Position numbers and translations under genes: made by a program | Part shown: positions 1,928 through 59,487 of the stretch, one piece after another | How the letters are laid out: every line of letters starts with the position of its first letter | Numbering within the stretch: position 1 is the first letter of the stretch | NCBI GenBank assembly: GCA_964391975.1 | Contig: CAYMNZ010000001.1 | Coordinates: 15,280-79,279 of the forward strand | Direction of reading: 5' to 3' | Length of the DNA stretch: 64,000 bases | From: an uncultured Candidatus Saccharibacteria bacterium | Lineage (GTDB): Bacteria > Patescibacteriota > Minisyncoccia > Phycocordibacterales > Phycocordibacteraceae | Notes under the pieces: generated by a model | Database searches by the model: none | Told to the model about the DNA's origin: nothing | Seen by the model: only the letters and a program-made list of their open reading frames with translations

Positions 1928-4075
<2,148 letters not shown>

Positions 4076-4086
4076 TCCTCCCCACA

Positions 4087-4117
4087 TAAAAAGAGCCGCA
4101 GATGCGGCTCTTTTTAT
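4087..4117. terminator. bidirectional Rho-independent terminator after fusA
   Basis: aaaaagagccgca-gat-gcggctctttttatt; a perfect hairpin flanked by an A-run and a T-run; the minus-strand gene ends at 4117. Confidence 0.8.
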
Positions 4118-4671
4118 TATTGTGCCTCTGCTGCTTTTTCTTCGAGGACTCGCGTGGACTCAGTTTGGAGTATGCGGGTAAGGGAGCTGTCGAATTCGTC
4201 TGATGTTATCCCGAAGGTCGAGCGGAACTCGGCGCGCAGTTCGCTTACATAGCGGTACCCGAGGGCGAATGACACCCGTACGTCAGAGGTAGCCGCGTGT
4301 TCGGTCGCTTTAGCGTGGTCAAAGAGCGCGTCGTAATGCTTTTTCACTATCGTGTCGATGATGGGGCTACGGTCATTGGGGTGGAGGCTATCGATGAGCT
4401 TGTGCAACTTGTTTGTCGCCTCACCTTGTCCGAGCTTCGCATTCTGTTCGGCGGCCAACAGGCGTTCAGGCTCGATGGGAGGTACTGAGGTAGCGTTCAC
4501 AATCTGGAGCGCCTCCTCGATTTTCATTCTTTTCTGCTCTGCGGGATTTTTCCCTCCTTGTTCCACTCTGGCGCTCATAGACGTTACTTGGTCAGTTACA
4601 GGGGATAGATACTCAGTGTACACCCACCGTCTTCCTTGGAGGGAGGACAAGATAGACTTTATCCCCGTCAT
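4117..4671 (-). CDS. hypothetical protein between fusA and tuf (opposite strand)
   Basis: 184-aa ORF, no family recognised; bounded by the fusA terminator and a ~210-nt divergent intergenic region upstream of tuf. Confidence 0.5.
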   Translation of the reverse strand: MTGIKSILSSLQGRRWVYTEYLSPVTDQVTSMSARVEQGGKNPAEQKRMKIEEALQIVNATSVPPIEPERLLAAEQNAKLGQGEATNKLHKLIDSLHPNDRSPIIDTIVKKHYDALFDHAKATEHAATSDVRVSFALGYRYVSELRAEFRSTFGITSDEFDSSLTRILQTESTRVLEEKAAEAQ

Positions 4672-4883
4672 CCACAGCCGGGCCTAAGGTTGACCCCTCC
4701 CGCCCCTTCCTGTAGGTTAGCTAGTAACGCGGTACGGCGCTCTTTGTAAACTTTCCCCATACGGGACAGGTCTATGAAGGCGTCGCGCGGGTATTCCGTC
4801 CGACGCCTTGGTTGTTATATGCCTCCCGGCCTGTAACAGGTGAGCGGTACTGATTAGAAACTTAGACGTAACGTAAACATTGT

Positions 4884-6080
<1,197 letters not shown>

Positions 6081-6548: not shown

Positions 6549-6854
6549 ATGGTACGAGAAATTGGAGAAGGCATGCACGACGTCCGTCCACCTCAGAAAG
6601 CGGAGAGGCCGCGCGCGTGGCGCCCGAAGACAGGAGAGGCAATTACCATCACCAAGCGCGGCGGAGGCATCGTTGCACAAGGTCGCCTTGATGCAGACCT
6701 CAACATCATCGATGGCAGACCAGCAGCCTTCCGTATAGGGGGCGCCGCAGAGGACCTTCTCCCAAGCGTGGTGAGTTCAAACCAAGAGGGAAAGAAACTT
6801 GTTGTCGTGACCAAGAAAGGAATCTTTGAGATAAATAAGGAGACCGTTCACTAA
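6549..6854 (+). CDS. hypothetical protein (first of three genes inserted between rpsJ and rplC)
   Basis: 101-aa ORF followed by its own terminator; start may be the internal Met (MHDVRPP, near 6573). Confidence 0.45.
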   Translation: MVREIGEGMHDVRPPQKAERPRAWRPKTGEAITITKRGGGIVAQGRLDADLNIIDGRPAAFRIGGAAEDLLPSVVSSNQEGKKLVVVTKKGIFEINKETVH

Positions 6855-6855
6855 A

Positions 6856-11002: not shown

Positions 11003-11206
11003 ATGCCAGCCCCAGAAAAACCAGAGAAACTGCAGAAAAAGAAACCAGAGAAACCAGAGAAACCAGAGAAACCAGAGAAACCAGAGAAACTGCAGAAAAA
11101 GGAATCAGATCCAGTTGAGGAAGTAGATACCTCTAACGAAGACCACTGGTTTGGTAGCGACTCATCAATGGGTCCTCGGTACGATAACGAGAGCGAAGAA
11201 TTTTAA
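11003..11206 (+). CDS. small protein with (PEKPEK)n tandem repeats
   Basis: 67 aa: MPAPEKPEKLQKKKPEKPEKPEKPEKPEKLQKKESDPVEEVDTSNEDHWFGSDSSMGPRYDNESEEF. The ORF-track ORF 10847..11206 overlaps the rplB 3' end and was trimmed to the internal ATG behind the TATAAT box. Own terminators on both sides. Confidence 0.5.
   Translation: MPAPEKPEKLQKKKPEKPEKPEKPEKPEKLQKKESDPVEEVDTSNEDHWFGSDSSMGPRYDNESEEF
11018..11100 (+). repeat. 9-bp tandem repeat (aaaccagag)n with two aaactgcag variants, coding
   Basis: Seen directly: aaaccagag x1, aaactgcag, aaaaag, aaaccagag x5, aaactgcag; encodes PEK/LQK repeats. Confidence 0.9.
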
Positions 11207-22697: not shown

Positions 22698-24091
22698 CTT
22701 TCTACGGTGGAGCGGGCACCGTCACAGGCTCTAATTTTCTTGTTGAGAGTGGAGCGAGCAAAGTGCTTGTCGACTGTGGAATTGAACAAGGAAAAGATTA
22801 TTGTGAATCCTGTTCATATGACCCATTTCCGTACGAGCCTTCAAGTATTAATGCGCTCGTGATAACGCACGCGCATCTCGACCACATCGGACGCGCACCA
22901 CGTTTGGTAAAAGAAGGATTCGCAGGCCCCGTGTACATGACGGCTCCCACGCGCGATATCGCAGAGGCAATGCTTCACGACAGTGCTGACATCCTCGCGC
23001 AGAATGCAGAAGCGCGCGACCTTGCACCGCTCTACCTGCAGGAACATGTGACGAAGTTTCTTTCACTCATTAAGGTGATTGAGTACCGCACAGAAACGAA
23101 GCTCACCGATGACCTCTCTGTGTATTTGCGAGACACTGGCCACATTCTTGGTGGGGCGAGTGTGCGGTTCGTTGATAAGGAAGGTGTGTCATTTGCCTTC
23201 ACAAGCGACATCGGGAACTCCCCAACGCCTCTGCTGCCGGACGCAGAGCCCATTACGGACGCAGATGCTATCGCCATTGAAAGCGTCTACGGCGACCGCT
23301 TGAATCCTGAGAAGGTGCATCGGGTAGAGAAGTTTAGGGATACGCTTAAGAGCGCACTTGCTCGAGGTGGCCCCATCCTTATTCCTTCGTTCTCCATTGA
23401 GCGCACTCAGCTGATGCTCTATGAGCTCTCGAACCTCATGGAAGCAGGGGAGCTGCCGCAGGTGCCCGTCTTCCTTGATTCGCCTTTGGCTATTGAGATT
23501 ACCAACATCTACCGCAAGCACGGCGCGAAGTTCTTTAAGGACACCGCCCAGGAAGAGCTTAAGCGTGAGCACGACCTCTTTAACTTCCCGTTCCTGCGGA
23601 TGACGAAGTCCCGGGAGGAGTCTATGAGTATTGCGGAGGTGAAGGACCCAAAGATTATCATTGCGGGCGCGGGCATGAGTCACGGTGGCCGCATTGGGAA
23701 GTGGGAGCACCGCTACCTCCCAGACCCCAAGACCACTCTCATCATGGTGGGGTATCAGGCACCAGGCAGTCCTGGGCGCATGCTCCAGGACGGCGCTAAG
23801 AAGGTGCGCATTGATCATCGTGATGTCACCGTGCGTGGACACATTGAGACGCTACATGGCTGGTCCGGACACGCGGATAGAGATGGGCTCCTCAAGTTTG
23901 CAGAAGGCTGCCTGCCTCGGACAAAGAACTTTTTCGTAACGCTCGGAGAGCCGTCGTCTGCGCGCTTTCTTGCCCAACGCATTCACGACTTCCTCGGGAC
24001 ACGTGCGATTGTGCCAGGGAAGGGGGACGTGTGGGAGGTGACCAAGGAAGGTGTGAAAAGGATAGAGAGTCAGAAGGGATTTGAATCCTAG
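22682..24091 (+). CDS. beta-CASP family MBL-fold ribonuclease (RNase J / CPSF-like)
   Basis: 469 aa; HAHLDHIG metallo-beta-lactamase motif 2 near the N-terminus and a beta-CASP-length C-terminal half. Confidence 0.75.
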   Translation: MALRVTFYGGAGTVTGSNFLVESGASKVLVDCGIEQGKDYCESCSYDPFPYEPSSINALVITHAHLDHIGRAPRLVKEGFAGPVYMTAPTRDIAEAMLHDSADILAQNAEARDLAPLYLQEHVTKFLSLIKVIEYRTETKLTDDLSVYLRDTGHILGGASVRFVDKEGVSFAFTSDIGNSPTPLLPDAEPITDADAIAIESVYGDRLNPEKVHRVEKFRDTLKSALARGGPILIPSFSIERTQLMLYELSNLMEAGELPQVPVFLDSPLAIEITNIYRKHGAKFFKDTAQEELKREHDLFNFPFLRMTKSREESMSIAEVKDPKIIIAGAGMSHGGRIGKWEHRYLPDPKTTLIMVGYQAPGSPGRMLQDGAKKVRIDHRDVTVRGHIETLHGWSGHADRDGLLKFAEGCLPRTKNFFVTLGEPSSARFLAQRIHDFLGTRAIVPGKGDVWEVTKEGVKRIESQKGFES

Positions 24092-24120
24092 TCAGCAGCG
24101 TTTGTAGTACAGTACGAGGA

Positions 24121-24600
24121 ATGGAAGAACGTTTTGAATCATCCCCTAAACCTACGACCGCTACCATTGCAGGGAAAGACCTGCTTCGTCGCATTGTAAT
24201 CAACGGGAGGCCTGACCCAAGGTTTTTACCCTTAAAAGAAGGAGGCGTATTCCACTATAGTCCACTCGTACCGTTTCTTGAGGAAGTTGATCAGAAAAAT
24301 ATCTACTACTCAATTGTTGAAGAAAGTGGGACCATTGTCGCACTTATTGAATTGGTTCAAAATCCTCACATAGATGCAGAATTATTTGCCGAAACCGCCA
24401 GTGTTGATATAAATCTTCAAGGGCAAAAACTATCTGAACCACTTCTGCGTGAGATGTTTTCCTTTGCAAAGAGTAAAGGAAAAAAACTCAAGATTTCTGA
24501 ATTTACTCTCATGGGTCAGGAGCGATTAGCGCACAAAATTGAGACATTGGCTAAGGAGTATGATGTTCAAGTCTCCCTCAATCAATCCACCCTACGATAA
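24121..24600 (+). CDS. hypothetical protein, possibly GNAT-fold; visibly AT-richer than its surroundings
   Basis: 159 aa; NLQGQKLSEPLLREMFSFAKSKG loosely fits GNAT motif A; many AAA/GAA/TTT codons unlike flanking genes. Confidence 0.4.
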   Translation: MEERFESSPKPTTATIAGKDLLRRIVINGRPDPRFLPLKEGGVFHYSPLVPFLEEVDQKNIYYSIVEESGTIVALIELVQNPHIDAELFAETASVDINLQGQKLSEPLLREMFSFAKSKGKKLKISEFTLMGQERLAHKIETLAKEYDVQVSLNQSTLR

Positions 24601-24646
24601 ATAGGTAGTCCGACCATCGTCCGTCCGCTCAAGGTATAGTTGCAGC

Positions 24647-25894: not shown

Positions 25895-25898
25895 GAAA

Positions 25899-25922
25899 GG
25901 TTCGAATCCTGGGCGGCCAGCA
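25899..25922 (+). repeat. R1 repeat copy A (GGTTCGAATCCTGGGCGGCCAGCA)
   Basis: Begins 4 nt after the HI0933-like stop; identical 24-mer at 28983-29006; contains the tRNA T-loop-like GGTTCGAATCC and a small hairpin CTGG-gcgg-CCAG. Confidence 0.85.
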
Positions 25923-25940
25923 CGTGATAGGCTTATCCAT

Positions 25941-26498
25941 ATGAGCGCGGAGGTACCCAAGACTTCCACAGACCTATCTAGTCAATCTGTAGAGCAGTTA
26001 AAAAAACTCTGTGACTCGCTTGATAAGAAAAGGCATAGAAAGGCCGATACATATCAGGCAGCCAATGCTGTATGGGAAATACTTCAGAAGAAACTATACG
26101 ATCTAGAAGATGAAGCGTTGGATTCGGGAAAACCACTCAGACTTTCTACTCGGATAGTTCTTGAGCATCAGATAAACGCCGCGAAGATAAAAGCAGAGGC
26201 ACTTCTGAAGGAGTCTGAGGACGCTTATATGGAATGGTCTCGTGCGCGCGGTACGTACGTCTATAAATATGACATGGAAGAGATTCTCCTGAAGGAACCT
26301 ATTGAATCTTTACTTTCGCGCTTCCACAAAGGAAACCTCATATATCTTGAAGAGCCGTATCTTGGGAAGATTAAAGATAGGTTAGAAGAGTTCGCGAAAG
26401 AAGGCACAAGTGAGGTCCACGAGAGTGCACGGTTACAAGCTGAGCATCTCACATGGAAGATTGATAGGTTACGGAAGAGGAAAGTTGAAGATTCATAG
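25941..26498 (+). CDS. hypothetical protein (AT-richer; between R1 and R2)
   Basis: 185 aa from a CATATG start 18 nt after R1-A; coiled/charged sequence; no family. Confidence 0.45.
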   Translation: MSAEVPKTSTDLSSQSVEQLKKLCDSLDKKRHRKADTYQAANAVWEILQKKLYDLEDEALDSGKPLRLSTRIVLEHQINAAKIKAEALLKESEDAYMEWSRARGTYVYKYDMEEILLKEPIESLLSRFHKGNLIYLEEPYLGKIKDRLEEFAKEGTSEVHESARLQAEHLTWKIDRLRKRKVEDS

Positions 26499-26502
26499 AC
26501 AA

Positions 26503-26524
26503 GTTCCAACATCGTCCCAGACAG
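26503..26524 (+). repeat. R2 repeat copy A (GTTCCAACATCGTCCCAGACAG)
   Basis: Starts 4 nt after the stop of the preceding ORF; copies at 27126-27147 and, with one mismatch, 29514-29535. Confidence 0.85.
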
Positions 26525-26547
26525 CCCGCAAGAGGTATACTTGAAGA

Positions 26548-27123
26548 ATGTTCCCGACTCACTTAGATAAGTCACAGAAAACTATCCTTGCACTTGTCCT
26601 CATACTCCTTCTCGGAGGAGGCTTGTACTTGTTGTTGCAACATCCATCACAACCAAGCGATGACCCGAACAGTTCTCTTGAGATAGTGTCCAGTTTTGAA
26701 GAATGTGTGGCCGCGGGCTACCCGGTGATGGAGTCCTATCCGCGTCAGTGTAGAAGCGCTGAAGGAACCCGCTTCGTAGAAAAGGTCGATGGGCCTATTG
26801 CGGAATCCTTTGGCTCGATTCAAGGCATTATCCTTCTCGGCCCAGTCTGCCCAGTCATGCAGGATCCGCCGGACCCAGAATGCAACGACAAGCCCTATCA
26901 AACCACCCTCGTACTTACAAGCGCTGACGGTTCGCGTGTCATACAGCAGTTCACGTCTAAGATCGATGGCACGTTTGCTCTTGATGTGCCTGCTGGCAAT
27001 TATGCGATTCGATCAACCGCGACGGCGAACACATTCCCACGCTGCTCATCGACCGACGTCATTCATGTTCCAGTGAACGATACGGTCGTAGCTAACGTTT
27101 CTTGCGACACGGGAATTCGATAG
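26548..27123 (+). CDS. secreted/membrane-anchored hypothetical protein
   Basis: 191 aa; N-terminal hydrophobic helix ILALVLILLLGGGLYLLL; Cys-containing extracellular domain. Confidence 0.5.
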   Translation: MFPTHLDKSQKTILALVLILLLGGGLYLLLQHPSQPSDDPNSSLEIVSSFEECVAAGYPVMESYPRQCRSAEGTRFVEKVDGPIAESFGSIQGIILLGPVCPVMQDPPDPECNDKPYQTTLVLTSADGSRVIQQFTSKIDGTFALDVPAGNYAIRSTATANTFPRCSSTDVIHVPVNDTVVANVSCDTGIR

Positions 27124-27125
27124 TG

Positions 27126-27147
27126 GTTCCAACATCGTCCCAGACAG
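27126..27147 (+). repeat. R2 repeat copy B
   Basis: Identical 22-mer GTTCCAACATCGTCCCAGACAG, 2 nt after the TAG stop at 27121-27123. Confidence 0.85.
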
Positions 27148-27213
27148 TCAGATACGGCCTCACTAAGCCACGTTCATCTCAACCTAAAAGTACACATGGT
27201 ACGATGGCTGCAT

Positions 27214-28107
27214 ATGAAATACATACTTTCTGCAATCATTCTTATCCTTCTTCTTGGTGCTGGATGGTATTTCTTCCTTCGGGAGGCACCGACGCCCACC
27301 CCACAGAGTCCTGAGGTCTCCACAGGCACAGAGAATTCGGGACAGGTAACGTCGCCGCAGGAGGACGACGGCACGACCGTTATCGGACGCTCAGCAGACG
27401 GAGCTGATATTACTGCTTACCACTACGGTACAGGAGCGGACGAAGTCGTGTTTGTGGGCGGTATTCACGGCGGATACTCATGGAACACTGCGTTGGTTGC
27501 CTACGAGCTCATGGACCATCTCGAGGCAAATCTAGCAACCATTCCTTCAAATGTGCGCGTGACCGTCATCCCAGCGCTCAACCCTGATGGCCTTGAGGAT
27601 GTTGTTGGGACAACGGGCCGTTTCGAAGCTAGTGACGTATCTACGAGCGCTGACACTACCGCAGCGCGCTTCAACGGAAACGAGGTGGACCTGAACCGTA
27701 ACTTCGACTGTGATTGGCAGGAAAAGGCAGTGTGGCAGAGCAAGCAGGTAAGTGGCGGTACCGCTGCATTCTCTGAGCCTGAAGCCCAGGCGATTCGTGA
27801 TTATGTAGGAACAAAGGGTCCCAAGGCGGTCATTGTCTGGTACGCATCTGCGGGCGGCGTGTATGCCTCCAATTGTCACAATGGCGTGCTCGCCGAGACG
27901 CGCGAGATACTCAACCGCTACGCGCAGGCGTCAGGGTACTCTGCCCACGAGACGTTCGACTACTACGCCGTTACTGGTGACATGACTAACTGGCTCGCCA
28001 AGGTTGGTATCCCATCCATCAGCGTCTTGCTCTCCGACCATACCAGCACCGAGTGGTCTAAGAACCGCGCCGGCATCGACGCCATCCTCAGCTACTACGC
28101 CGATTAA
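27214..28107 (+). CDS. M14-family zinc carboxypeptidase-like protein, membrane-anchored (paralog 1)
   Basis: ~297 aa; NPDG and DLNRNF motifs typical of M14 peptidases; N-terminal TM helix; start may be 27196. Confidence 0.65.
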   Translation: MKYILSAIILILLLGAGWYFFLREAPTPTPQSPEVSTGTENSGQVTSPQEDDGTTVIGRSADGADITAYHYGTGADEVVFVGGIHGGYSWNTALVAYELMDHLEANLATIPSNVRVTVIPALNPDGLEDVVGTTGRFEASDVSTSADTTAARFNGNEVDLNRNFDCDWQEKAVWQSKQVSGGTAAFSEPEAQAIRDYVGTKGPKAVIVWYASAGGVYASNCHNGVLAETREILNRYAQASGYSAHETFDYYAVTGDMTNWLAKVGIPSISVLLSDHTSTEWSKNRAGIDAILSYYAD

Positions 28108-28982
28108 TGTTTCCGGCCTCGACCAAGGTACGGGTCATAGCAGGTGCGCTCGTGCTCGTGGCTCTCGCCGCGGGCGTCCTGCTATTCTTCCTGACGCGCT
28201 CAGGGGCGCCGATTGAGGAGGCACCAGCTGTTGAACAGTCTGCCGTTGAACGTTCGGTTATTGGGAGTTCTGTTGAGGGCCGGTCTCTAGAAGCGTATAC
28301 GTACGGAACGGGCGACACTACGCTCGCGTTCGTGGGCGGCATCCATGGTGGCTACGAATGGAACAGTGTGCTCCTTGCCTATGAGCTCATGGACCATCTC
28401 GAAGGGAATCCCGAGCTCATACCGACGAACCTACAGATAGTGGTCATCCCTTCTGCAAACCCAGACGGCCTCTACAAGATAGTGAAGAAAGAGGGGCGCT
28501 TTACGCGTTCGGACGTTGTTTCTGGTGACCAATCCGCAGGCCGGTTCAATGCAAACGGCGTGGATTTGAATCGTAACTTTGCGTGCAAGTGGCAGCCACA
28601 AGCGACGTGGAGAGGGGAAACTGTAAGCGCGGGTACTGCGGCGTTCTCAGAACCGGAGGCCAAAGCGCTGCGCGACTTCTTCGAGGAAGAGCGGCCTGTC
28701 GCGGCGGTTTTCTTTCACAGTCAGGCGAATGCCGTATATGCGTCAGAGTGTGAGGCTGGTGTGCTTTCGGAGACCCTTGCAGTCATGAACGCGTATGCGA
28801 GCGCAGCTGGATATCCTGCCGTGAGCACGTTTGATGCGTATCCGGTTACGGGCGACATCGAAGGGTGGCTCGCGTCCATTGGTATCCCTGCGGTCACGGT
28901 AGAGCTTTCCTCTCACGAGGCGGTGGAGTGGGAGCGAAACTGGCGTGGTGTGTCCGCGCTTCTGGGGCGGTACGGAGAGTAG
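28107..28982 (+). CDS. M14-family zinc carboxypeptidase-like protein (paralog 2, tandem duplicate)
   Basis: 291 aa; the same motifs in the same order (AFVGGIHGGYEWNSVLLAYELMDHLEGN; NPDG; DLNRNF); start overlaps the stop of paralog 1 (TAATG). Confidence 0.65.
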   Translation: MFPASTKVRVIAGALVLVALAAGVLLFFLTRSGAPIEEAPAVEQSAVERSVIGSSVEGRSLEAYTYGTGDTTLAFVGGIHGGYEWNSVLLAYELMDHLEGNPELIPTNLQIVVIPSANPDGLYKIVKKEGRFTRSDVVSGDQSAGRFNANGVDLNRNFACKWQPQATWRGETVSAGTAAFSEPEAKALRDFFEEERPVAAVFFHSQANAVYASECEAGVLSETLAVMNAYASAAGYPAVSTFDAYPVTGDIEGWLASIGIPAVTVELSSHEAVEWERNWRGVSALLGRYGE

Positions 28983-29006
28983 GGTTCGAATCCTGGGCGG
29001 CCAGCA
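28983..29006 (+). repeat. R1 repeat copy B
   Basis: Identical 24-mer, starting the base after the TAG stop of M14 paralog 2. Confidence 0.85.
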
Positions 29007-29026
29007 GATTGGTATACTTTACACAT

Positions 29027-29509
29027 ATGGAGAGAGCAGAGAGCGGTAAGCGTACAGCGGCTCAAAAGACGGCTGATTTAGTGCAGATGCGCATTATCAG
29101 AGAGAAACTTACTTCGGGGAAGCCCCTATTTCCTGATGAAGAGGCATTGATCGGACGAGAAGGCGGAACACCCGAGCAAAAGCGAAAAGGATTCCAGGCA
29201 GAAGCACGAAAGATAATTAAGGAAATCTCGCAACGTGAGTCTTTCTGGAAGAAACTAAGTAATTCAACGGATAGGGGTGAGGGACGTATAGGGCGGTTAG
29301 CAGAAATCTTAGAGCTTGCAGCACTGATACGCGAGTATTATCAGACAGACTCCGCCACCAGAGAACAAGTGGGGCATTCCGTTGTGCGCATGCTGTACAA
29401 GCACGCTGGATTAACCAGCTTGACTGAGATTGATTTAGGTCGAGCCGCGGATCTTGTTGATGGAGAGATGACTATCGAAGAAATAGCCTCACGATTGCTG
29501 AAAAATTAA
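29027..29509 (+). CDS. hypothetical protein (AT-richer; between R1 and R2)
   Basis: 160 aa from a CATATG start 20 nt after R1-B; no family. Confidence 0.45.
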   Translation: MERAESGKRTAAQKTADLVQMRIIREKLTSGKPLFPDEEALIGREGGTPEQKRKGFQAEARKIIKEISQRESFWKKLSNSTDRGEGRIGRLAEILELAALIREYYQTDSATREQVGHSVVRMLYKHAGLTSLTEIDLGRAADLVDGEMTIEEIASRLLKN

Positions 29510-29513
29510 AGCG

Positions 29514-29535
29514 GTTCCAACATCGTCCCTGACAG
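29514..29535 (+). repeat. R2 repeat copy C (one mismatch: ...GTCCCTGACAG)
   Basis: 4 nt after the TAA stop of the preceding ORF. Confidence 0.8.
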
Positions 29536-29580
29536 CCCCGCCGTACAAAGTAAGAACTTACAACCAGTCGCCCTGCATTG

Positions 29581-43335: not shown

Positions 43336-43412
43336 TGGTCCACCCGCTTGGACTCGAACCAAGGACCCTCGAGGTATAAGCTCGATGCTCTAACCAGCTG
43401 AGCTACGGGTGG
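43336..43412 (-). tRNA. tRNA-Ile with anticodon UAU (reads AUA); CCA encoded
   Basis: Minus sense CCACCCG-TA-GCTC-AGCTGGTTA-GAGC-A-TCGAG-CTTATAC-CTCGA-GGGTC-CTTGG-TTCGAGT-CCAAG-CGGGTGG-A-CCA. Full cloverleaf; anticodon loop CU-UAU-AC; discriminator A. Confidence 0.8.
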
Positions 43413-59371: not shown

Positions 59372-59461
59372 TGGCGGAGACGCAGGGATTCGAACCCTGG
59401 AGAGCTTTTACACCCTACCTCGTTAGCAGTGAGGCGCTTTCGACCACTCAGCCACGTCTCC
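59372..59461 (-). tRNA. tRNA-Ser (anticodon GCU), class II with long variable arm; CCA encoded
   Basis: Minus sense GGAGACG-TG-GCT-GAGTGGTCGAA-AGC-G-CCTCA-CTGCTAA-CGAGG-[18-nt variable arm]-CAGGG-TTCGAAT-CCCTG-CGTCTCC-G-CCA. Confidence 0.85.
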
Positions 59462-59487
59462 GGAGCTTCCAAAGTACCACCTAGGGC

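Follow-up and report, generated by a model that had tools for sequence, protein, structure and literature searches.

What are the short direct repeats that follow stop codon after stop codon in this genome, and why do they enclose small, AT-rich genes? The question is raised by a 64,000-nucleotide (nt) stretch from an uncultured Candidatus Saccharibacteria bacterium (contig CAYMNZ010000001.1, positions 15,280 to 79,279; hereafter the window), in which two repeat families, R1 and R2, bracket small open reading frames (ORFs). A first-pass annotation of the window had proposed att-site remnants or cassette boundaries, integron-like in logic and not in sequence, and this proposal is supported here. 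The best answer, with a probability of roughly 0.8, is that R1 and R2 represent the two attachment-site types of small Patescibacteria elements that carry a large serine recombinase (LSR) and integrate at the 3' ends of tRNA-Gln genes.

R1 (GGTTCGAATCCTGGGCGGCCAGCA, 24 nt) occurs twice on the + strand of the window, at 25899-25922 and 28983-29006, and the core of R2 (GTTCCAACATCGTCCCWGACAG) occurs three times on the same strand, with starts at 26503, 27126 and 29514. The first-pass annotation had found these copies at the same positions, and 100 dinucleotide shuffles of the window, with up to 3 mismatches allowed, gave 0 matches. The order it gave along the strand is also correct: flavoprotein, R1, hyp1, R2, secreted ORF, R2, two M14 carboxypeptidase genes, R1, hyp2, R2. 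Its distances between repeats and stop codons are right except at R1b, which starts 0 nt after a TAG and not 1 to 4 nt; this TAG belongs to an extended repeat (TAGGGTTCG), as it does at loci L003 and L005 of other genomes. The CATATG starts it had placed about 20 nt downstream of R1 lie 18 and 20 nt away. Identity between copies ends abruptly at the repeat borders, and the true extent of R2 is about 34 nt, from 6 nt upstream of GTTCC through the C that follows CCAG, as a logo of 71 copies shows. The two repeats are variants of a single element, with GGTTC...CCAGC in common. In the lines that follow, B-type (attB/attL) denotes a candidate chromosomal target and attP/attR-type a candidate element-side site; the nhmmer model of R2 was built solely from metagenome copies.

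24076 to 24099, + strand: tentative decayed B-type site (GGGATTTGAATCCTAGTCAGCAGC), overlapping the beta-CASP stop codon; B-type model E=2.2.
24608 to 24634, + strand: tentative decayed R2-like site (GTCCGACCATCGTCCGTCCGCTCAAGG), located 13 nt ahead of the flavoprotein ATG and matching the R2 core with 3 mismatches.
25899 to 25922, + strand: R1a, attB/attL-type site, starting 4 nt past the flavoprotein stop; B-type nhmmer E=2e-5.
26497 to 26529, + strand: R2a, attP/attR-type site; nhmmer hit 26497-26530, E=1.6e-9.
27120 to 27152, + strand: R2b, attP/attR-type site, right end of the first array; nhmmer hit 27121-27151, E=1.1e-8.
28983 to 29006, + strand: R1b, second attB/attL-type site, directly behind the TAG of the second M14 gene, M14b (28980-28982); E=2.8e-5.
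29508 to 29540, + strand: R2c, attP/attR-type site whose right end is decayed (ACAGCCCCG) and which faces a convergent gene; nhmmer hit 29508-29537, E=1.6e-7.

Neither of the first two sequences is significant alone by nhmmer.

Judged by their sequence, both repeats are fragments of the tRNA-Gln 3' terminus. R1 can be aligned base by base with 13 tRNA-Gln 3' ends and is composed of G52 G53, the T loop TTCGAAT, the T-stem 3' strand CCTGG, the acceptor 3' strand GCGGCCA, the discriminator G and a C; after the discriminator, R1a reads CA. R2 is composed of an A-rich lead, GG/AG, a 12-nt loop (TTCCAACATCGT), CCCAG, ACAGCCC, G and C. It differs from the R1 frame by the invariant 12-nt loop, which replaces the 7-nt T loop, and the variation of R2 between lineages is in the acceptor strand. 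The CCA-G ending (A72 opposite U1, G73) is present in 13 of 13 tRNA-Gln genes analysed here, and R1/R2 show the hallmarks of tRNA-Gln derivation (T loop, T-stem and acceptor 3' strands ending in CCA/GCA, G73). The tRNA T loop that the first-pass annotation had seen in R1 is thus part of a tRNA-Gln 3'-end anatomy found in both repeats. The match covers tRNA positions 52-74 alone, with no complete cloverleaf at R1/R2 in the window. Neither ARAGORN nor Rfam (gathering and E-value searches) placed a tRNA gene or RNA family over R1/R2 in the window, whose RNA genes by these programs are a tmRNA, a tRNA-Ile(UAU) and a tRNA-Ser(GCU). No R1/R2 base pairing and no internal covariation were seen.

Among 35 R2-bearing metagenome loci scanned for tRNA genes, tRNA-Gln made up 11 of the 17 genes found, at 11 loci. 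The R2 array at these 11 loci always lies 3' of the tRNA-Gln and on the same strand. The genes on the 5' side are the housekeeping genes FtsX and DnaX, and also an M10 peptidase; ORFs of about 300 amino acids (aa) upstream of tRNA-Gln, suspected as Xer-like recombinases, are in fact FtsX, the M10 peptidase and DnaX. A second type of tRNA-Gln(UUG), with an odd T loop (GGATCGTACCC) and a different D arm, is present at L037 (1834-1907) and L068 (964-1039). A canonical fragment (GGTTCGATCCCTAGTCTCCCAGC) that mismatches the acceptor stem of this tRNA lies 17-50 nt downstream of it.

The repeats recur in other genomes. The exact R1 20-mer was found in two further genomes among 185,579 species representatives, one labelled Paceibacterota (L003) and one labelled Saccharibacteria (L005, L006). 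L003 and L005 have an 88% identical gene plus R1 in common, and their homology ends exactly after GGCCAG. R2-like sequences follow the ORF after R1 in L003 and L006. The stop-codon position of R1 holds in L003 and L005, where the repeat is directly behind a stop, and fails in L006, where it is behind a divergent gene start. The smallest unit seen is also in L006 (3405-3482), where about 120 nt separate R1 from R2 and the ORF between them, of 25 codons, has a CxxC motif (MRCEHCNGIMKFRKVGHKKLKEESK).

The R2 15-mer matches at least 120 metagenome loci, about half of which are chance matches in GC-rich coding DNA. The remaining 72 R2 copies come from 38 sources with contig G+C content (GC) of 0.28-0.63 and have a common 34-nt consensus, A-n-A-n-A-G GTTCCAACATCGTCC CAgACnSCCAGC. 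The consensus is asymmetric, and its information content stops at the C after CCAG (71-copy logo). R2 is widespread in Patescibacteria-type metagenome contigs as same-strand arrays, with nine R2 in 8.5 kb (L039), eight (L029) and five in 2 kb (L118) as examples. In a profile search, the members of all 47 of 47 adjacent R2 pairs shared a strand, and their median spacing was 608 nt. Between neighbours, the longest ORF often fills 60-90% of the interval and is co-oriented in 29 cases and opposite in 17; many of the co-oriented units are 85-95% coding. The orientation of R2 is constant despite mixed gene direction; therefore, R2 acts at the DNA level, which removes the readings in which the repeats act in RNA processing or as promoters.

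Rfam found nothing at the repeats of nine array loci. A search of a viral collection with the R2 15-mer returned chance sites and one GC-rich phage coding sequence, and nothing else. About 22 nt (GGTTCCAACATCGTCCCAGACA) in common with R2 occur at L142, L146-L150 and about 30 other IMG/VR loci (e.g. L148 6148-6162), a resemblance that may be due to chance or to a distant relationship. This is coding sequence of phages with GC of 0.60-0.70, and its opposite strand encodes VVWDDVGTF, the same peptide as the C-terminus of the attP form of the LSR described below. R2 variants split by an insertion of about 24 nt (AGTTCCAACATC-CGTCTAGGCGCCGAAACTGATCCT-CCCAGACGACCAGC) are present in a tRNA-Gln-downstream island of L225 (2162-2217 and 3484-3500).

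The recombinase that accompanies these sites was found in relatives. At L009, a 506-aa LSR with Resolvase, Recombinase and Zn_ribbon_recom domains adjoins tRNA-Gln, and an R2 lies 6.8 kb away. This LSR has 2237 homologs at E<=1e-10, of which the best 120 are 56-69% identical (besides the query's own 100% match) and 442-532 aa long. Where an organism is named, the sources are mostly Patescibacteria, Parcubacteria, Paceibacterota or Zambryskibacteria, and the contigs reach 941 kb. Linked LSRs (Resolvase, Recombinase and zinc ribbon) are present in the relatives L009, L211-L220 and L221-L223 and not in the window. The first-pass annotation was right that no integrase lies near the repeats in the window; its suggestion that the mechanism would be unknown is overtaken by this LSR family, the predicted user of such sites in relatives.

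In five independent lineages, an opposite-strand tRNA-Gln overlaps the LSR 3' end: L009 and the lineages of P0003, P0043, P0074 and P0049 (L211-L220), in which the tRNA overlaps the last 12-61 nt of the LSR ORF. In all five, one R2 is located on the tRNA strand 4.5-6.8 kb from this tRNA-Gln. The LSR side carries cargo in four of the four further members and a rolling-circle Rep (REP_ORF2-G2P) in three of them, L215/L216 being without it. The cargo of the elements includes restriction-modification, CD-NTase, ThsB-TIR, Shedu and zeta toxin genes. Housekeeping genes lie beyond the tRNA in four of the five lineages (L211/212, L215/216, L218-220, plus FtsX via L050/L091 synteny), and those among the four further members are FtsX/FtsE/RF and DnaX. 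The flank of P0043 (L213/L214) holds methyltransferase, solute-binding protein and type IV secretion system (T4SS) pilin genes. The recombinase physically coupled to the sites was a serine recombinase in every case examined. No two of the 93 large ORFs scanned at 37 R2 loci matched Phage_integrase, and the LSR profile had no relative in IMG/VR.

Several observations on the LSR loci stand apart from these. At L218, a second LSR of 608 aa (3347-5173) overlaps with its 3' end the R2 (5121-5154) that closes the first element, so that two different recombinase elements stand in tandem at a single tRNA-Gln. A third copy of AAAGGTTCCAACA, oriented as R2, occurs within every LSR gene, some 90-105 nt away from the att site (L213 11345-11357, L218 11344-11359, L217 6344-6356, L009 about 6840-6855). 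On the coding strand it encodes the invariant W-N-L of the LSR, and it may serve as an accessory binding site or have given rise to the R2 left arm. The C-termini of the LSR homologs P0107 and P0099 match the window at 59375-59479 (57% identity over 35 aa), antisense of the tRNA-Ser GCT at 59372-59461. A sister branch of the LSR family therefore appears to integrate into tRNA-Ser genes; the tRNA-Ser GCT site of the window looks unoccupied.

A free form of the element was found as well. P0101 is encoded on L222 (6,551 nt) and L223 (6,539 nt), which come from two samples and are 100% identical circular permutations of each other; their terminal overlaps of 30 and 18 nt close a 6,521-bp circle. 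No tRNA lies on the circle, whose genes are an HTH gene and those for Rep, LSR, CD-NTase, YunG and DUF2726. R2 is joined in it to the LSR-side arm at the LSR 3' end (AATAATCAATGTTCCAACATCGACCCAAACTG CCAGC ATTTCTGAAAAACTAGCATTTTTAGG), and the attP of L222 reads AATAATCAATGTTCCAACATCGACCCAAACTGCCAGCATTTCTGAAAAACTAGCATTTTTAGG. By this arrangement, R2 with LSR-side sequence is attP and R2 with chromosomal sequence attR; likewise, tRNA-Gln followed by LSR is attL and the tRNA-Gln 3' end attB. Both hybrid flanks and the free form have thus been seen: attL as tRNA-Gln at the LSR end, attR as R2 4.5-6.8 kb away, and the circular attP.

Whatever lies across the site from the LSR encodes, on its antisense strand, the predicted LSR C-terminus. 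Among the best 120 homologs, 48 end in ...STLL-RDLDSNQD... by a strict pattern, with close variants (ESN, GSN) in many others; in this tail, which marks the attL form, the tRNA T arm is read in antisense. A tail of the form xVW(D/x)(D/E)VGT closes P0101, P0036, P0059, P0084 and P0091, as well as P0012, which ends in ...STLLHVWDDVGTII. This second tail is the antisense of R2 and was predicted before the C-termini were inspected. The two forms part right after the leucine codon opposite CAG (positions 71-73).

The geometry of the sites is that of serine integrases. The A118-family integrase has a 9-bp zinc-ribbon-domain motif at half-site positions 16-24 in attP and 11-19 in attB (PMC3783163). 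The attB motif of serine integrases is thus 5 bp nearer the centre than that of attP, and the inner recombinase-domain region is common to both (PMC3783163). The B-type outer block (GGTTCGAAT), taken from 13 tRNAs and 5 R1 copies, was compared with the P-type block (GGTTCCAAC) of 63 R2 copies. The mean match peaks at 0.717 for shift +5; it is 0.023 for shift 0, and none of the other shifts exceeds 0.46. Without a shift, the ten inner positions agree (0.52), and both types have the right side CCAGCaaatt in common. The LSR-side arms (n=5) carry a T5 run at a fixed distance from CCAGC that mirrors the A5 at the R2 outer edge, so attP can be described as roughly a 56-bp imperfect dyad. The attL and attR of single insertions differ up to position 70, and CAGC (71-74) is common to all forms, which brackets the crossover to 71-74; the exchange presumably takes place within this CAGC.

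Taken together, the sites fit a cycle in which elements composed of an LSR and, usually, a rolling-circle Rep would integrate into the 3' end of tRNA-Gln genes, the exchange presumably being catalysed by an LSR of this family. The chromosomal target (attB, or attL once integrated) would be the tRNA-Gln T arm and acceptor-stem 3' strand, of which R1 would be a free-standing copy. The element-side site (attP, or attR once integrated) would be R2, with its GGTTC block 5 bp further from the crossover. Each integration would leave attL (tRNA-Gln or R1), inserted DNA and attR (R2), and repeated integration would stack units into a tRNA-Gln or R1 followed by (gene, R2) repeated. The window holds three or four cassettes, each one ORF with about 50 nt and without its own recombinase, and these presumably arrived by the LSR/tRNA-Gln route. 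At the first site, R1a (attL), hyp1, R2a, secreted ORF and R2b would be two stacked units. R1b, hyp2 and R2c would form a second loaded site, and a decayed R1', the low-GC ORF at 24121-24600 and R2' a probable third.

How units without a recombinase might move is suggested by the L221 element, in which an ORF of 165 aa separates attP from a second R2 beside it. This unit suggests a pick-up-and-drop route. Excision via a more distant attR would collect a neighbouring unit into the element, and, after integration elsewhere, excision via the nearer attR would leave the collected unit behind. Alternatively, minimal circles could be integrated by an LSR supplied in trans. A broader proposal, possible and put forward tentatively, is that Patescibacteria run an integron-like, LSR-based gene-capture platform in which cassettes of an ORF and an att site of about 50 bp, at tRNA-Gln-type sites, are carried by Rep-LSR plasmids. 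Small plasmids of this kind would choose among tandem attR sites, picking up and dropping cassettes, and R1 would be a portable landing pad that spreads the platform to new intergenic positions. Arrays could grow without limit because the regenerated tRNA end would stay a valid target.

Several findings weigh against the assignment of R1 and R2 to LSR integration. All 16 of 16 contigs of this population, with identical flavoprotein, carry the same array, and no occupied/empty polymorphism was found among them. An all-against-all comparison of the flanks of 72 R2 copies found no cassette common to the sampled arrays. A tblastn search with 120 LSRs found no LSR of this family in the window, and the sampled R2 arrays other than L009 hold no LSR or LSR fragment, Rep fragments not having been searched for. 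R1 lies outside any tRNA gene in the window, its exact 20-mer was found in no tRNA gene of the 185,579 species genomes, and the model does not account for free-standing B-type sites behind three host genes, or for 24-nt sites identical in three genomes right behind the stops of unrelated genes. The right-hand half-sites are poorly conserved, and the conservation of the R2 left arm may in part be coding constraint, as this arm encodes the LSR C-terminus in the circle. Lastly, the crossover dinucleotide is bracketed only, to C71-C74.

The alternative that survives best takes the repeats for dead scars: full-size LSR-Rep elements would have integrated serially and then lost the recombinase, Rep and most of the cargo through deletions, so that no unit would still be mobile. 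Several of the observations just given, namely the missing LSR in the window and most arrays and the uniform array of this population, are equally points for such decay, as are the decayed right ends in R2c, R2b and the 24076/24608 pair. Full-size elements in tandem also exist, the second 608-aa LSR of L218 abutting an R2. Decay is nevertheless unlikely. The window units consist of an intact ORF with 47-52 nt, and many co-oriented metagenome units are 85-95% coding, unlike the products of random deletion. No LSR fragment is left in arrays outside L009 (Rep fragments were not searched for), the L221 element itself carries its R2-ORF-R2 unit beside attP, and R1 and the R2 left arm are perfectly conserved across genomes. 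Since arrays lack LSR remnants and so many co-oriented units are densely coding, random decay is not the best fit.

Much further behind are attC-like or tRNA-identity-block att sites served by a tyrosine recombinase encoded elsewhere. The 3' ends of tRNA genes are the classical targets of tyrosine integrases, canonical fragments like R1 could be displaced tRNA 3' ends, and arrays of small ORFans with one repeat orientation resemble integron arrays. This account is very improbable given that the imperfect palindrome R''/L''...L'/R' is missing from R1/R2, with no inverted partner inside or downstream of them, that the 5-bp offset is a serine-integrase signature, that Phage_integrase is not recurrent at the R2 loci scanned and that the site-coupled recombinase is of the serine type in every case examined.

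The other proposal of the first-pass annotation was an RNA-processing or regulatory element at ORF boundaries. Spelled out, this would be a tRNA-like structure in the 3' untranslated region or the 5' region that serves processing in the style of tRNA punctuation, termination or transcript stabilisation. The position of the repeats 0-4 nt behind stop codons, the hairpin and T run that often follow R2 in AT-rich contigs, and the T-loop sequence and small hairpin of R1 would suit it. It can hardly be maintained when 17 of 46 enclosed ORFs are on the opposite strand and 47 of 47 repeat pairs keep one orientation. In addition, R2 lacks the 5' half of a tRNA-like fold and the T-stem partner is absent, Rfam has no match, and the same sequence serves as attP of the circle and attR of integrated elements.

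A promoter or operator that regulates the downstream genes is the least credible, for the TAnnnT hexamers 6-8 nt before the ATG after R1a, R1b and R2a, and the full TTGACT-N17-TATAAT promoters directly behind R2 in AT-rich contigs, are outweighed by a repeat-to--10 distance that varies from 6 to >30 nt, by R2c and several other copies that face convergent genes or terminators, by a window scan without a sigma-70-type promoter at the repeats and by promoters that also abut the other side of the repeat on the opposite strand. Sigma-54 and extracytoplasmic function (ECF) motifs and integron R'/R'' boxes, checked by eye, do not fit the repeats.

As LSR attachment sites, R1 and R2 can be compared with known systems. 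The elements share with phiC31, Bxb1 and the A118/LI integrase (attP x attB -> attL + attR) the Resolvase, Recombinase and Zn-ribbon domains, an attP that overlaps the recombinase gene end, hybrid sites that flank the integrated element, a free circle that carries attP and a recognition block 5 bp further out in attP than in attB. They differ in their target, a tRNA gene 3' end that the element regenerates, and in the last 20 or so recombinase codons, which come from antisense tRNA (attL) or antisense R2 (attP). Also different are the carriers, which are 4.5-7 kb Rep plasmids and not phages (none in IMG/VR), and the accumulation of sites in long arrays that bound single genes.

The staphylococcal cassette chromosome (SCC) elements use Ccr serine recombinases, with attB at the 3' end of rlmH/orfX. 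They have in common with the present system the serine recombinase, the conserved-gene 3' end as target, direct repeats, tandem accretion and the coexistence of recombinase-less units with autonomous ones. SCC elements are islands of 3-60 kb, whereas the units here are single ORFs of 0.3-1.3 kb, with a tRNA-Gln target, a Patescibacteria host and a rolling-circle plasmid as the autonomous form.

Integron cassettes (ORF plus attC, moved by IntI) are similarly compact, mostly single-ORF and often ORFan units, with one recombination site per unit in constant orientation and seeding at one primary site. The recombinase class is different, however, and the sites here are asymmetric 34-nt tRNA-derived sequences, not folded palindromes. 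Many cassettes here have a promoter of their own, and inversion is possible (17 of 46); no recombinase gene lies beside the array. The attC palindrome (RYYYAAC ... GTTRRRY) was sought at R1/R2 without an inverted partner being found within or after them, and no IntI/attI was met at array ends, where arrays start at tRNA-Gln or R1 and housekeeping genes lie upstream of the tRNA.

Islands targeted to tRNA genes, such as the Prochlorococcus islands and those of P4-type integrases, depend on tyrosine integrases with an identity block. They likewise have tRNA 3'-end direct repeats downstream of an intact tRNA, and tandem accretion, but R2 is not identical to the tRNA and has a fixed 5-nt longer spacer. 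Mechanistically, then, the system appears to work like serine-integrase integration, and its population logic resembles that of SCC elements and integrons. In the searchable literature, no description of integrons, attC, tRNA-Gln or serine recombinases of this kind was found for Patescibacteria/CPR. The elements would make up a tRNA-Gln-targeting Rep-LSR family of Patescibacteria, with arrayed sites that bound single-gene cassettes.

Patescibacteria, which account for much of bacterial diversity, have very small genomes and can hardly be manipulated genetically. The compact LSR with its attP (R2 plus LSR-side arm) and attB (tRNA-Gln 3' end or the 24-nt R1) would be a natural integration system for them, and the element also offers a small replicating plasmid backbone. 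It adds a well-sampled family to the serine integrases of genome engineering. The system would explain a hot spot of strain-specific genes, defence cargo included, and R1/R2-type fragments can flag horizontally acquired ORFs in these genomes. It also suggests that a serine recombinase, and not only integron integrases, can build single-gene cassette arrays.

The genes between the sites of the window are as follows.

24121 to 24600, + strand: low-GC ORF, 159 aa, GC 0.40-0.44, between the decayed R1-like and R2-like sequences.
25941 to 26498, + strand: hyp1 cassette ORF, 185 aa, GC about 0.44; -10-like TAGGCT at 25928-25933, 7 nt before the ATG.
26548 to 27123, + strand: secreted-protein cassette ORF, 191 aa; TATACT at 26536-26541, 6 nt before the ATG.
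27196/27214 to 28107 and 28107 to 28982, + strand: two M14 carboxypeptidase genes (Pfam Peptidase_M14), GC 0.55-0.60, genome-like.
29027 to 29509, + strand: hyp2 cassette ORF, 160 aa, GC about 0.48; TGgTATACT at 29010-29018.

The first-pass annotation had described the bracketed ORFs, and the ORF at 24121-24600, as AT-richer than their neighbours, and they are: GC is 0.43-0.50 in the bracketed ORFs, against 0.55-0.60 in the flavoprotein and M14 genes. The link between repeats and low GC holds for three of the four window cassettes. The three clear units measure 608, 623 and 535 bp from centre to centre of the predicted sites, and their non-coding DNA comes to 24+26, 23+24 and 26+26 nt (50, 47 and 52), about one att site each. 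The ORF at 24121-24600 is probably an older cassette with a decayed site pair, because its spacing equals that of the other window units. The flavoprotein, with its genomic GC, is read as a chromosomal segment between sites; so is the M14 pair, which would separate two loaded sites, unless it is itself a large cassette, as is possible.

Nothing usable was found for the four cassette ORFs in Pfam, PADLOC or PHROGs. hyp1 is an ORFan, its sole match among 5.8e9 proteins being itself, and Pfam gave it no convincing match, with one sub-threshold DUF3135 hit; hyp1 and hyp2 are not homologous to each other. hyp1 also gave a weak profile match to the LSR coiled-coil region (hhalign probability 27%, 24% identity over 95 columns, tblastn E 0.003-0.12). 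This match is possibly spurious, from coiled-coil composition; if true, hyp1 as a directionality or decoy factor would be interesting.

Like the ORFan status of hyp1 and the break between L003 and L005, the homologs of the secreted ORF point to foreign or variable cargo: up to 65% identical, they occupy three unrelated neighbourhoods. At L226 the order is YchF, a decayed B-type site, a different cassette, an R2-like site and then the homolog. At L225 the homolog is in a tRNA-Gln-downstream island alongside DUF1428 and 3-dmu-9_3-mt genes, both of which are found at the edge of the window array too. A flavoprotein homolog lies just beyond the tRNA-Gln array of L050. Because homologs of both the secreted ORF and the flavoprotein lie by tRNA-Gln arrays, the window locus looks like a tRNA-Gln island whose tRNA has gone.

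Four starts in the window lie 6-8 nt after a TAnnnT hexamer (24634-24646, 25928-25940, 26536-26547 and 29013-29026), which in the three clear units falls within the right arm of the site. None of the four has a Shine-Dalgarno sequence or a recognisable -35, and a scan found no sigma-70-type promoter there; this combination suggests that these genes may be expressed as leaderless mRNAs.

Two further observations concern the window outside the array. A run of 9-nt tandem repeats (CCAGAGAAA and variants) at 11012-11109 presumably codes for a P-E-K repeat. Bacteria usually decode AUA with a lysidine-modified CAU tRNA; the tRNA-Ile at 43336-43412 on the - strand has the anticodon TAT (UAU), an uncommon bacterial reading of AUA.

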